Source: Hadesarchaea archaeon
Lineage (GTDB): Archaea > Hadarchaeota > Hadarchaeia > Hadarchaeales > WYZ-LMO6
DNA length: 41,151 nt
Direction: 5' to 3'
Assembly (NCBI GenBank): GCA_029259185.1
Contig: JAPDJF010000024.1
Coordinates: 1-41,151, forward strand
Numbering within the stretch: position 1 is the stretch's first letter; each line of letters begins with the position of its first letter. The notes beneath the pieces were generated by a model. That model made no database searches, had not been told where the DNA came from, and saw nothing but the letters and a program-made list of their open reading frames with translations. Positions 24,078 to 27,635 of this stretch are shown here, one piece after another. The position numbers and the translations under genes were made by a program.

Positions 24078-25235
24078 TTGAGGGTACACATCGCAGAATG
24101 CGTGCTGGGTGTTTTCGCTTTCAGCGGGGGAAAGATGGTGGGGTTCAGATCCTTCCCCCCCAATCCGAAAGAGATCGCAGAGCGGATACTGTCTGTGCTC
24201 GGAGGGGTCCCGACCGAGGAGCACCTCCAGCTGGTTAGGGATATGCTGGTGTGTGGGCATAAAAAGTTCACGGTGGAGTCAGAGGGATTGGCCAAGGGCC
24301 TCAGGGAGAGATTGGGTGATGGGGAGTTCATCCCAGAGTTTCCGAACGAAGCCGGGAAGGTGCTGAGGAAGGATCCGGGCAGAGTGGTGGGGTGGGTCGG
24401 GGTAAAAGACATCGATCCGCTGGTGCGGGAGGTGTGTATGTACCTGAGCAGGAAAGGGGTCGAAGAAAAGGCCGAAGAGAAAGACAGGCTCGTGATCAAC
24501 GCGGTGAAAACCTTGGATGAGATCGATAAGGCATGTAACATGATCTGTAGTATTCTCCGGGAGTGGTACTCGCTCCACTTTCCCGAGCTCGACGAGCAGA
24601 TCCGAGATCACGAGCTTTACTTGGAGCTCCTCGTTTCGCTCGGCCAGAGGGAGAATTTCGAAGAGGAGAAACTGAGCGGGTTTGGGGTTCCCGAAGGGGT
24701 GAGGAAAAAAATTGCTCGCGCGGGGCGAGGTTCGGGGGGGACCCCGTTGGCTGAGGCCGACATGGAAGTGATAAAGGAGTGTGGAGAGGCGGTGCTGGGA
24801 CTCTTCAGGACGCGCAAGCGATTGGCAGAGTATGTGGATCGAACCATGGCTCGAGTGGCACCCAACCTGCGTGCTGTGGTCGGAGGTCTGCTTGGGGCCA
24901 GACTCATAGCGCTCGCCGGAGGATTGGACAGGCTCGCCAGAGCACCCACCAGCACCATCCAGCTTTTAGGTGCTGAGAAAGCACTCTTCAGGGCATTGAA
25001 GACGAAGGGGAAGCCTCCGAAGCATGGAGTGATATACCGATTCCCCCAGCTCCGCGCGGCTCCGAGGAAGGTCAGAGGAAAAATAGCTAGGGCGCTCGCT
25101 GGGAAGGTTAGCATAGCAGCTAGGGTCGATGCGATGGGTGGGGAGTACGTTGGTGAAAAACTCGGGGCGGATCTCCGAAGGCGCATCGGGGAGATCATGT
25201 CGAAGTATGAGAGATCCAAAGAGGCACTGAGGTGA
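24078..25235 (+). CDS. nop5: Box C/D sRNP protein Nop5 (Nop56/58)
   Basis: LREWYSLHFPEL, APNLRAVVG, STIQLLGAEKALF, PPKHGVIY, RGKIARALA. Confidence 0.96.
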   Translation: MRVHIAECVLGVFAFSGGKMVGFRSFPPNPKEIAERILSVLGGVPTEEHLQLVRDMLVCGHKKFTVESEGLAKGLRERLGDGEFIPEFPNEAGKVLRKDPGRVVGWVGVKDIDPLVREVCMYLSRKGVEEKAEEKDRLVINAVKTLDEIDKACNMICSILREWYSLHFPELDEQIRDHELYLELLVSLGQRENFEEEKLSGFGVPEGVRKKIARAGRGSGGTPLAEADMEVIKECGEAVLGLFRTRKRLAEYVDRTMARVAPNLRAVVGGLLGARLIALAGGLDRLARAPTSTIQLLGAEKALFRALKTKGKPPKHGVIYRFPQLRAAPRKVRGKIARALAGKVSIAARVDAMGGEYVGEKLGADLRRRIGEIMSKYERSKEALR

Positions 25236-25250
25236 GGTATATAGTCATAG

Positions 25251-25611
25251 ATGCACATGCGAGAGGAAAAACTCTACCCACCGGGGCAAGCGATATGAGG
25301 TGGTTGCGACTTTCGAGAACCGACGGGGGTTGAAAAAAGTGTTCGAGATGCTTAGGGCTGGCGAAGCCGATACCGTGATCGTTGCGTGGAAAGATTGCCT
25401 CACCCGCTTTGGCTTTGAGCATTTGAAAAATCACGCTGAGGATCTCGGCGTTCGAATAGAAGGGGTAAATGAACGAGAAGAACGAACTCCCCACGAGGAG
25501 TTAGTCGGAGATCTCCTCTCCGTTGTCGCCAGCTTCTCTGGCAGGCTCTACGGTATGGGTTCAAACAAAGCGAGAATGGTGGTGGAGAGTGTCAAGCGTG
25601 CAGTCCGTTAG
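25251..25611 (+). pseudogene. tnpA: IS607 TnpA serine recombinase, internally deleted and frameshifted
   Basis: MREEKLYPPGQA start stops at 25298; second frame has ENRRGLKK...DCLTRFGFE...EELVGDLLSVVASFSGRLYG; HTH and catalytic YARVS segment are absent. Confidence 0.85.
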
Positions 25612-26956
25612 TTCGGCCCGATTTGTTACCCCGCCCTTGACCCGGCGAAAACAAGAGGTGCTAAAACAATTGCTCGACCGGTTCGCGGCCTCGGTGAACT
25701 TCTGCATTTGGAAGTGTCTTGAGCACAAGGTCACCTCTCGCGCCTCGCTGCACCGCGTTGCCTACGAGGAGTGGAAGTCGCGCTTCGATCTCGCTACTCA
25801 CTGGTTCCACTCGGCCGGGCAGGTCGCCACACAGATGCTCCGCTCATGGCGGAAGCTCTGCCGCAAAGGACGAGCTGATCCAAGCAGGCCACCTCGTTAC
25901 GAAGCTCGAACTATGCGCTTGGAGCTTTGGGGTGAGAGTAGCGTCTCTGACATCTGCCGTTTCCATGGGCACGCGGTTCAGATCCGCACGCGCAAGGACG
26001 AGCACCTCTGGCTTCCGCTGATCGTAACCGAGCACCACGAGTTTCGCTACCTCAAGGACTGGCGCGAGGGGAAGACGAGAGTTGGTGAGATCACCATCTC
26101 GACATTTAAAGACAGGGCGGACATCTTCGTGTCCTTCAAGCGCGAGGTAGAACCAAAGCTTGTGGGAGGCATCTGCGGAGTCGGCATCAACGAGCGGAGC
26201 GTCGATTTGACCGTCCTGAAGCCGAGCGAGCGGCCAAAACACACCAGCCTCGACGTTTCAAAGCTCCCAGCGATAAGGCACGCCTCCCAGCTCAAGCGGA
26301 AGTCGATTCAGCAAAAGCTCGATGCGCTGCCGCAGCGCCCCGTGCAGAAGCGGAGGCTTTGGGCGAAGTACTGGCGCAGGGAGCGAAATCGAACGAACCA
26401 GATCATGCACGTCGTCAGCAAGCGGATCTCCGAGATCGCCGAGCGCGAGCGCACCGCGTTTGCATTCGAAGGCATCGAGAAGATTCGAGAATCTATGCGC
26501 TCGAAGCGAAAGTCGAGGAACGGCAAAACCCTGCACAAGGACATGCGCAGGCGGCTCAACCAGTGGCCTTTCAGGAAGCTCCAGTTCTTCGTCGAGTACA
26601 AGGTGGCGCGACAAGGGTTGCCGACGGTAGAAGTAAGCAACTATCACAAGTCGAAGGACTGCCCGGTGTGTGGCCGTTACAATAGGCCGAATGGGCACGC
26701 CCACAGGTGTCAAACCTGTGGGTTCGAAGCCAGCCGCCACCTCGTGACGAGCTGGAATCTTCCCTGCTCCGACAGGGAAGAGAACCCAGCTAAGGATGGG
26801 GCGAGGCACGTCCCCGCCGACTGCTGGCAGATGCAACGGGTAGCGGAGGGGCTTGTAGCTCCTGAGAAGCTATCCGTGGAGCCAGAAAAAAATCCCGTGT
26901 CAGACTGGTGTAGTTTGATACGGGATTTTAGGACGGTCGTTAGTGCGAGGTTTTAG
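25598..26956 (+). CDS. tnpB: TnpB-family RNA-guided protein with substituted RuvC catalytic residues
   Basis: GVGINE (RuvC-I Asp to Gly), AFEGI (RuvC-II), WPFRKLQFFVEYK, CPVC...CQTC zinc finger, SRHLV (RuvC-III His); GTG 25598 overlaps the tnpA end. Confidence 0.9.
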   Translation: MQSVSSARFVTPPLTRRKQEVLKQLLDRFAASVNFCIWKCLEHKVTSRASLHRVAYEEWKSRFDLATHWFHSAGQVATQMLRSWRKLCRKGRADPSRPPRYEARTMRLELWGESSVSDICRFHGHAVQIRTRKDEHLWLPLIVTEHHEFRYLKDWREGKTRVGEITISTFKDRADIFVSFKREVEPKLVGGICGVGINERSVDLTVLKPSERPKHTSLDVSKLPAIRHASQLKRKSIQQKLDALPQRPVQKRRLWAKYWRRERNRTNQIMHVVSKRISEIAERERTAFAFEGIEKIRESMRSKRKSRNGKTLHKDMRRRLNQWPFRKLQFFVEYKVARQGLPTVEVSNYHKSKDCPVCGRYNRPNGHAHRCQTCGFEASRHLVTSWNLPCSDREENPAKDGARHVPADCWQMQRVAEGLVAPEKLSVEPEKNPVSDWCSLIRDFRTVVSARF

Positions 26957-26961
26957 AACGG
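26891..26961 (+). ncRNA. Putative 3' part of the TnpB omega-RNA (reRNA) scaffold
   Basis: 16-bp hairpin AATCCCGTGTCAGACT/AGTTTGATACGGGATT (26891-26927) with two G-U pairs, at the tnpB 3' end and element right end. Confidence 0.55.
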
Positions 26962-27635
26962 TCAGATCCCACGCTAAATTTCCCGGGGTTTACTGGATTG
27001 AGTCAAAGGAGGGGAGGAAGCTGGCGACGGCCAACTTGATCCCGGGACGAAGCGTGTACGGGGAGGAGAGGGTGGAGTGGGAGGGGACGGAATACAGGAG
27101 TTGGGATCCCTACAGGAGCAAGCTCGCCGCTGCGATCATCAAGGGGATGAAGAGTATGCCCATCAGAGAGGGGTCGAGAGTACTTTACTTGGGGGCGGCA
27201 ACTGGAACAACGGTCAGTCATGTGTCGGATATCGTGGGAAAGATGGGAATGATATACTGCGTCGAGATCTCCCCGAGACCGATGAGAGATCTCCTCTCCC
27301 TTTGCGCTCTCAGGGAAAATCTCTCGCCGATATTGGCCGATGCTAGGAACCCTCAGAGTTATGGCATGTTGGTAACGGGAGTGGATGTTATATACCAAGA
27401 CGTGGCTCAACCCGATCAAACGGAGATCTTGCTGAGGAACGCTAGGGTTTTCCTGTCCTCCGGCGGATGGGCCGTGTTCATGCTCAAGGCCCGGAGCATA
27501 GATGTCACTAAGGATCCCCAGGAGATCTTTAGAGGAGAGGTGGAGGCTCTGAGAGAGGAAATGGAGCCGGTGGAGGTGAGGGTGCTGGATCCATACGAGA
27601 AAGATCATGCGATGCTTCTGTTGAGGAAGAAGTGA
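26943..27635 (+). CDS. flpA: Fibrillarin-like rRNA/tRNA 2'-O-methyltransferase
   Basis: SVYGE, YRSWDPYRSKLAAAI, VLYLGAATGTTVSHVSD, YQDVAQPDQ, KARSIDVT. Confidence 0.97.
   Translation: MRGFRTVRSHAKFPGVYWIESKEGRKLATANLIPGRSVYGEERVEWEGTEYRSWDPYRSKLAAAIIKGMKSMPIREGSRVLYLGAATGTTVSHVSDIVGKMGMIYCVEISPRPMRDLLSLCALRENLSPILADARNPQSYGMLVTGVDVIYQDVAQPDQTEILLRNARVFLSSGGWAVFMLKARSIDVTKDPQEIFRGEVEALREEMEPVEVRVLDPYEKDHAMLLLRKK

Follow-up and report, generated by a model that had tools for sequence, protein, structure and literature searches.

In the window analyzed here, a 41,151-nt stretch of DNA from Hadesarchaea archaeon (contig JAPDJF010000024.1, assembly GCA_029259185.1), the essential RNA-modification genes nop5 and fibrillarin are hosts to a worn insertion of the IS607 family. 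The insertion spans 25236-26936, between the stop codon of nop5 and the start codon of fibrillarin, and is probably an immobilized element of a Hadarchaeota family (TnpA, TnpB and an omega-RNA) that is in early decay and whose TnpB protein recently lost the catalytic Asp of its RuvC-I motif. The source of the window is contig C11 of a 54-contig, 1.27-Mb, 95%-complete metagenome-assembled genome (MAG; G000) of a hydrothermal-vent archaeon. A preliminary description of the locus, made from the DNA letters, had judged domestication of a nuclease-dead TnpB and ordinary decay to be equally possible. Decay is supported by the results that follow, whereas domestication is not, given that the Gly at codon 196 is private to this copy, the insertion site is not conserved, and the guide has no second target.

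Loss of the RuvC-I aspartate

The protein encoded by tnpB was aligned with 105 database relatives (106 sequences in total; 25-81% identity), and the family profile was aligned to solved TnpB/Cas12f chains to locate the catalytic positions. This profile alignment matched the RuvC-I Asp to the Asp of 'G-[IV]-D-[IV]-N-E', the RuvC-II Glu to the Glu of 'F-E-[GD]', and the RuvC-III Asp to the His of 'S/D-R-H-[LF]-V'. The corresponding features of the window are:

25598..26956, plus strand: tnpB open reading frame (ORF; P0001), GTG start, 452 aa, no internal stop; Pfam PF07282 Cas12f1-like TNB, 4.9e-12
26183..26185, plus strand: GGC, codon 196, giving Gly in place of the RuvC-I catalytic Asp; of 106 rows, 104 have Asp, 1 has Gly (that of the window) and 1 has a gap
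26468..26470, plus strand: codon 291, GAA (Glu), RuvC-II, kept; Glu 104, Gly 1 (P0019, the L024/L049 copy), gap 1
26660..26719, plus strand: zinc finger CxxC...CxxC (C355, C358, C371, C374), kept; columns nearly invariant in the family alignment
26738..26740, plus strand: CAC, codon 381, giving His where RuvC-III would have Asp; the column holds 93 His, 6 Asp, 2 Gln, 1 Arg and 4 gaps
26757..26783, plus strand: 27 extra nt, in frame and private to this copy, directly behind the RuvC-III motif; none of the 9 aligned relatives has them, and they fall in a low-confidence loop of the protein model

The preliminary description had regarded the protein as nuclease-dead by two residues, GGC at 26183-26185 and CAC at 26738-26740. 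Both codons do fall on catalytic Asp positions in the profile alignment, but only the first sets this copy apart. His occupies the RuvC-III position in 93 of the 102 rows with a residue, and all six rows with Asp there are distant outgroups (31-34% identity). Among 38 near-full-length metagenome loci, which are not independent because their sources are partly shared with the protein set, the Asp, Glu and His motifs were found in 38/38 and Gly196 in 0/38. The Asp-Glu-His triad is also carried by the autonomous copies at loci L051 and L052, each with a complete TnpA of 208-211 aa, including a helix-turn-helix (HTH) and the catalytic-Ser motif, that overlaps the tnpB start. The RuvC-III His is therefore no lesion but the normal variant of the clade, presumably a functional one; that it might be clade-typical the preliminary description had itself cautioned. 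Since this His is clade-typical, only the change of Asp196 to Gly is informative, and it is the one position at which the triad differs from that of the relatives. In other words, a branch-wide His at RuvC-III is present in the window's clade, while the window copy itself, with Gly at RuvC-I, has neither an intact Asp-Glu-Asp triad nor a clade-conserved rearrangement of it. By analogy with characterized TnpBs, the Asp196-to-Gly change should abolish DNA cleavage as well as RuvC-dependent processing of the omega-RNA.

Rearranged active sites are a known feature of these proteins. Six large TnpB branches have an altered RuvC-III, the largest of them with Asp replaced by His, and this conservation has been argued to imply retained activity (PMC10691335, section 8); several of the rearranged branches are almost exclusively archaeal (PMC10691335). 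A passage of PMC10278001 states no prior expectation that rearranged clades are inactive, and one in 10.1101/2023.11.30.569447 relates that alternative residue positions yield spurious 'dead' calls. A relocated catalytic residue was considered here too, in the form of a conserved acidic residue in the C-terminal 'VPAD/VPPE' peptide. This candidate was dropped, since the peptide is encoded by covarying omega-RNA stems, which makes its conservation uninformative on a relocated residue, and is modeled with a predicted local distance difference test (pLDDT) score <50.

By sequence and by fold, the window protein is a TnpB/Cas12f protein with WED-REC-RuvC-zinc-finger architecture. Besides the Pfam match, this is supported by a PDB profile match to TnpB chain 9nzp (6.5e-12) and by an AlphaFold model built on the 106 aligned sequences (mean pLDDT 84.5, predicted template modeling score 0.75), which is confident over residues 1-390 and of low confidence at 394-404 and 410-452. 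Foldseek matches extended over the whole model (8dzj, E 6.4e-19; ISDra2 TnpB 8h1j, 5.3e-13; ISFba1 TnpB 8iaz, 6.6e-13). The 452-aa ORF is uninterrupted and the four zinc-finger cysteines are in place, as had been reported. Within the 27-nt insertion, just upstream of the omega-RNA block, there is a perfect 8-bp palindrome with a 6-nt loop (26759-26780) that is unique in the genome.

Contigs from public sequencing runs also covered codon 196. A contig of run X1 (10,409 nt) covers 25835-27300 with 0 differences, one of X4 (19,678 nt) covers 25751-27300 with 6 differences, none of them at codon 196, and the X5 contigs cover 25943-27171 with 0, 0 and 1 differences and codon 196 unchanged. X1 and X4 come from one study and X5 from another; X1 is not independent support, because it may be the source sample of the MAG. 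Since contigs from two studies carry Gly196, it is not an assembly error. The tnpB differences in the X4 contig are G112G, S114S, Q339R and T384A (two synonymous and two non-synonymous, too few for any test). At codon 384 the strain variant in X4 and X5 retains the family-consensus Ala where the window has Thr, which makes Thr384 a recent private substitution at a strongly conserved site. The nop5/left-end junction is bridged by contigs of X1 and X4 and the right-end/fibrillarin junction by X1, X4 and X5 contigs. No joined empty-site form was found among the public-run contigs, which cannot show its absence.

Structure of the insertion

The ends of the element, the remnant of tnpA, the RNA features and the two host genes are laid out as follows:

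24078..25235, plus strand: nop5 (Nop56/58-type protein of the C/D small ribonucleoprotein, sRNP); Pfam PF01798 Nop, 3e-65; stop TGA at 25233-25235
25236..25237, plus strand: GG at the left junction, putative serine-recombinase crossover dinucleotide; GG occurs in family left flanks, and the right end also finishes GG
25238..25299, plus strand: truncated left end and first 13 codons of the former tnpA; outer 29 nt gone
25300..25611, plus strand: what is left of tnpA, a 103-aa ORF for the C-terminal portion of the serine-recombinase catalytic domain; the Pfam Resolvase match (1.2e-09) is confined to profile positions 45-136 of 145
26789..26936, plus strand: omega-RNA scaffold region, overlapping the tnpB 3' end; RNAalifold on the last ~150 nt of 12 copies gave 28 pairs, 16 with compensatory double changes
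26889..26929, plus strand: terminal 19-bp hairpin of the scaffold and right end; -26.1 kcal/mol, the most stable of the twelve copies
26926..26936, plus strand: right-end terminus, TTTTAGGACGG; similarity among all copies stops after it
26937..26956, plus strand: guide position, first 20 nt of the flank; holds the fibrillarin GTG (+7 to +9) and the tnpB stop TAG at 26954-26956
26943..27635, plus strand: fibrillarin, GTG start; Pfam PF01269, 8.7e-95
26951..26963, plus strand: 13-nt near-repeat (12/13) of the right-end terminus plus the first two flank bases, within fibrillarin codons 3-7 and 25 nt downstream of the real terminus

Of the two ends typical of IS607 elements, the right one is intact and the left one lacks its outer 29 nt. 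The missing segment carries the conserved left-end motif with which intact copies begin directly after the GG, and which is present in a copy on contig C2 of the same genome, in L051 and in others. Compared with the C2 copy, L051 and L048, ~290 nt of tnpA comprising the HTH and the catalytic-Ser region are also absent; the former tnpA ATG now leads to a stop after 13 codons and the gene is frame-shifted. TnpA thus survives as a remnant matching Resolvase positions 45-136 of 145, where the relatives L051 and L052 have a complete protein of 208-211 aa overlapping tnpB, and the earlier description of a tnpA gene without HTH and catalytic segment was accurate. Its extension of the element to 26961 was not. 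At the 3' ends of ten elements, at the 9 right-end termini of this genome and at many further loci, similarity stops after TTTTAGGACGG, and because this stop is family-wide we place the right end at 26936. The 13-mer at 26951-26963 was ruled out as the true junction, since it would put the reconstructed fibrillarin in the wrong frame and since the first motif is where all other copies end. It is not present in the fibrillarin N-termini of relatives and may have arisen by local duplication, be left over from an older end, or reflect a resemblance of the target; right-end-like fragments occur in several other right flanks too.

Small changes also mark the 3' tail of tnpB, which has one extra A in an A-run and two bases fewer in the hairpin loop than its relatives. 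As a result of these two indels, the last ~20 codons are out of the relatives' frame, and instead of stopping at a TAG inside the right-end motif, the window ORF runs 8 codons beyond the right end, to the TAG at 26954-26956. Coding is nearly continuous across the locus: after the end of nop5 at 25235, the start of tnpB falls within the tnpA remnant (25300-25611), and the tnpB stop lies inside fibrillarin, which starts at 26943. No run of five or more T residues was found on the plus strand within 25236-26942. Fibrillarin matched only once in this genome, and because this single gene must be expressed through the element, the element is probably co-transcribed with nop5 and fibrillarin.

The omega-RNA scaffold shows no sign of wear. 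A terminal hairpin equivalent to that at 26889-26929 folds in 12/12 family copies tested, and, given the covariation among them, the predicted structured RNA, which overlaps the 3' end of tnpB and finishes at the right end, is a family feature that is intact in the window copy. No Rfam family matched the scaffold, the sole hit (E = 0.88) being taken as chance. The hairpin noticed in the preliminary description is thus real, with a larger extent than the 16 bp at 26891-26927 that it was given. Likewise, the fibrillarin 5' sequence does occupy the guide position, at 26937-26956, but this implies no special role: as a passage of 10.1101/2023.11.30.569447 sets out, the guide of TnpB is the sequence just outside the right end, and the guide of the window copy is its flank by default, as for every TnpB element. 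No second target of the 20-nt guide was found in the 95%-complete genome at <=4 mismatches, and none of the few 16-nt and 12-nt near-matches is preceded by GG. Binding to its own DNA locus is not expected either, because the right-end terminus has C at the position where family left flanks have G (24 of 27) or A (3 of 27).

Where the family inserts and how its copies fare

Fibrillarin was found once in each of 21/21 genomes of the order searched. In 13/13 relatives examined, nop5 abuts fibrillarin without an insertion, the aligned ends lying <=108 nt apart and the stop and start codons often overlapping. Conversely, neither gene was found in the flanks of 73 other loci of the TnpB family (12 genome, 61 metagenome). 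The preliminary description had named an insertion private to this genome as evidence against domestication, and such is the picture obtained, at genus resolution only, since G000 is the sole genome of its genus in the collection. A candidate nop5-fibrillarin fusion in genus g2 of the same family (L037, L038, L041 and L042) was rejected, the stop-to-stop frame of 499-613 codons in which fibrillarin lies there being merely a GC-rich open frame that crosses nop5 in a different reading frame.

To measure site preference, we took 62 distinct right flanks followed by 300 nt or more of DNA, scored co-directional ORFs of at least 80 aa, and used 4,000 random G000 positions as the null. A co-directional ORF began <=12 nt from the right end in 17/62 flanks, compared with 12.5% of random positions (binomial p 1.2e-3), and exactly at +7 or +8 in 11/62, the window (+7) among them, compared with 1.85% (binomial p ~2e-8); these figures are to be read with the caveats of non-independence among related flanks, rough ORF calling and a null drawn from one genome. 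Right flanks bearing on this preference are those of the window (26937-26945), of L062, L071, L080, L097, L103, L104, L117, L049 and L051, and of the own-genome copies at C5:52384, C14, C12:127 and C6:4151. On the other side, the left flanks of 27 distinct elements end in RGGG, with G at -2 in 27/27, G at -1 in 25, and G (24) or A (3) at -3. Together, the spacing to the start codon and the RGGG left flank suggest integration into Shine-Dalgarno-like sites, and the right-end terminus AGGACGG, which would occupy the former ribosome-binding position, may itself work as a ribosome-binding site. IS607 transposases are described in part of PMC4058570 as minimally target-specific, and we found no report of ribosome-binding-site targeting by IS607 in titles and abstracts, which is not proof that none exists. 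Because the family habitually lands 7-8 nt upstream of start codons, the location of the window copy between nop5 and fibrillarin is explained and is no sign of recruitment.

The family's related loci are mostly in Hadarchaeota, and in the genome of the window it is decaying, the other copies being deletion derivatives. The window holds the only full-length tnpB (the next-best protein match covers residues 1-102), and several of the 9 right-end termini, the window's included in this number, stand beside tnpB fragments or no tnpB. The copy on C5 (51393-52384) has an intact tnpA and an internally deleted tnpB, the C2 copy has lost tnpB, and on C14 a left and a right end lie ~230 nt apart. Outside this copy, the genome has only two complete Resolvase domains, at C5:51607-52008 and at C5:12011-12397, the second of them in another element. 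One of the derivatives resembles a miniature inverted-repeat transposable element (MITE), with just a left end, a small piece of tnpA and the terminal hairpin.

Loss of tnpA is common outside this genome as well, a TnpA match of at least 190 aa being present in only 8/38 metagenome loci, several of which had too little upstream DNA to judge. In two different genera, L054 (2501-3825) and L055 (2501-3819) have a tnpB with intact Asp-Glu-His and no tnpA at the same place: both have a tRNA-Glu(ctc) ~300 nt upstream and agree in the first 15 nt of the right flank, and a tRNA-Leu(taa) follows in L054. Their shared site suggests that a solo tnpB has been kept by vertical inheritance for a long time. 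A catalytic residue is missing from just one other copy, L049/L024 (P0019; RuvC-II Glu to Gly), which has no tnpA and an open ORF and sits exactly between the genes for the hydrogenase large and small subunits.

Decay, selection and the case for domestication

We propose that the element entered at a GG within the ribosome-binding region, immediately behind the nop5 stop codon and 7 nt ahead of the fibrillarin start, and that the outermost 29 nt of the left end and ~290 nt of tnpA would have gone afterwards. It is probably immobile, because the conserved left-end motif, likely a TnpA binding site, is gone. In this scenario tnpB would have outlasted tnpA, as it has in most family copies, and the private Asp196-to-Gly change would have followed the loss of tnpA, with the 27-nt in-frame insertion and the two small indels that shift the last ~20 codons as further private changes. 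The shortened left end, the deleted and frame-shifted tnpA, the 27-nt insertion, the indels of the 3' tail and the recent Thr384 all count as signs of decay in this copy. The simplest view of the open ORF is that of a gene inactivated not long ago, and not that of a repurposed regulator.

Several observations weigh against early decay. Pairwise dN/dS (NG86) between the window tnpB and its five closest relatives was 0.12-0.17, barely above the 0.09-0.16 among those relatives, and almost all of the history of tnpB has therefore passed under purifying selection. At columns conserved in at least 97% of sequences, the window protein has 10 private changes in 182, the highest of 47 sequences (next 8, 8, 7 and 7), which speaks for decay, and is still no clear outlier given its branch length, the other high counts belonging to long-branch sequences. 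Indels are found in the left end, in tnpA and in the last 200 nt of tnpB, and the tnpB core is free of indels and stops; by a rough estimate, at least 5-6 indel events that all spare the core of a 1.7-kb element would be expected in <1% of cases under a uniform spread. In addition, the omega-RNA scaffold is fully intact, and Gly196 is fixed in all strain variants sampled. These points fit a very recent loss of function and continued selection on the ORF or the protein alike. The dN/dS values are uninformative for the period since the Asp196 change, because old divergence dominates them and dS (~0.8-1.3) is near saturation. The closest relatives in the protein database, the genome contigs and the metagenome contigs do not exceed 81% identity. 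After the loss of tnpA, tnpB stayed under purifying selection, as is the rule in its relatives.

Selection might have acted on the ORF and not on the protein, tnpB being a spacer cistron kept open for fibrillarin expression or translational coupling, with Gly196 a tolerated missense change. If tnpB acquired a frameshift or a stop, much of the RNA ahead of fibrillarin, which now lies 1.7 kb from nop5, would go untranslated and translational coupling would be broken. The overlapping reading frames, the lack of T5 runs on the plus strand (25236-26942), the single-copy fibrillarin and the sparing of the core by indels all agree with such a role. So does the parallel at L049/P0019, where the Glu-to-Gly copy keeps an open ORF between tightly linked, co-directional hydrogenase subunit genes; that parallel, though, rests on a sample of two. 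Polarity or coupling in this organism is assumed, and selection on the ORF alone would not predict that 172 of 182 conserved residues are kept, a fact that recency would explain. We regard this explanation as unlikely but not negligible.

Domestication in the manner of TldRs, with the dead TnpB and its omega-RNA acting as an RNA-guided binder that regulates fibrillarin or another gene on DNA or on polycistronic mRNA, might be proposed from the loss of the RuvC-I Asp in a protein whose fold, zinc finger and RNA scaffold are intact. It would agree with the immobilization of the element, with the fixation of Gly196 in strain variants from two studies and with a guide segment that covers the fibrillarin GTG. 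TldRs are described in a part of 10.1101/2023.11.30.569447, however, with conserved mutations and new gene associations, and here the change is private to one copy and conserved in no clade (1/105 rows, 0/38 metagenome copies), the nop5-fibrillarin association is not shared (13/13 relatives without insertion), and the protein has neither a C-terminal truncation nor a new partner gene. Nothing else in the 95%-complete genome matches the guide, its near-matches lack a preceding GG, and the C in the terminus at the G/A flank position argues against binding at the element's own locus. Three defining features of TldRs could be tested and none was seen: a clade-conserved mutation, a lost transposon context with a conserved association, and a promoter target flanked by a transposon-adjacent motif (TAM). 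Regulation of this kind is in our judgment very improbable. We rate as no more probable a version in which the dead TnpB is kept in the nop5-fibrillarin operon and acts in cis on the polycistronic transcript, its omega-RNA guide being the fibrillarin initiation region. Were it true, the complex could sequester the fibrillarin start, or protect the transcript having lost RuvC-dependent RNA processing; it would tune the stoichiometry of C/D-box sRNP components and represent an archaeal RNA-level analogue of TldRs, born of insertion into ribosome-binding sites. Retention of nuclease activity, with Gly196 tolerated and another acidic residue substituting, appears the least credible of all. Rearranged catalytic sites are documented for RuvC-II and RuvC-III (PMC10691335, section 8), and the clade already carries one, its RuvC-III His, yet the RuvC-I Asp stands in 104/105 rows, which gives no hint that a compensated state has been evolving. 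The relevant passages of PMC10691335 describe no compensated RuvC-I replacement, with subtype V-U24 given a noncanonical RuvC-I site, and according to a passage of 10.1101/2023.11.30.569447, mutating any residue of the triad abolishes nuclease activity.

Relation to known systems and implications

The window copy resembles IS607-family elements in that its relatives have a tnpA with MerR-type HTH and serine-recombinase domains that overlaps the tnpB start, in that no terminal inverted repeats were noticed and GG stands at both junctions, and in having a predicted structured RNA that takes in the 3' end of tnpB and terminates with the right end. It departs from them in lacking most of tnpA and the outer left end, and its family prefers sites 7-8 nt upstream of start codons, unlike the minimal target specificity attributed to IS607 in part of PMC4058570. 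The clade-wide RuvC-III His, with RuvC-I Asp and RuvC-II Glu kept, the archaeal hosts and the association with a serine recombinase are shared with the RIIIr branches (PMC10691335), among which RIIIr-4 and RIIIr-6, along with Ser-6, are candidates, the window clade being assigned to no named branch. Unlike the RIIIr branches, the window copy also lacks the RuvC-I Asp.

With TldRs the window copy has in common a TnpB fold without a canonical catalytic residue, an adjacent guide-RNA scaffold and no working transposase. It differs from them in that its mutation is private and its gene still lies inside recognizable transposon ends (the right end and part of the left), in having no conserved new gene association and a guide that is flank without a promoter target, and in having no C-terminal truncation and an archaeal host. 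A closer likeness is to non-autonomous, tnpB-only elements, since most relatives in the family lack tnpA and yet have an intact tnpB and right end. Those relatives have kept the left-end terminus and the Asp-Glu-His triad, however, whereas the window copy has lost both the terminus and the Asp.

These results carry a caution, in that a naive count of triad residues flags the window protein as doubly mutated when one of the changes is the norm of a large archaeal, transposase-associated TnpB clade and the other occurs once, in an element that is visibly decaying. Clade-aware baselines and synteny checks are needed in any screen for domesticated TnpBs. The Asp-Glu-His TnpB family of Hadarchaeota, with its autonomous copies, is a good test case for DNA cutting with a RuvC-III His. 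Finally, insertion 7-8 nt before start codons, together with a purine-rich right-end terminus, would explain how such elements are tolerated inside essential operons.

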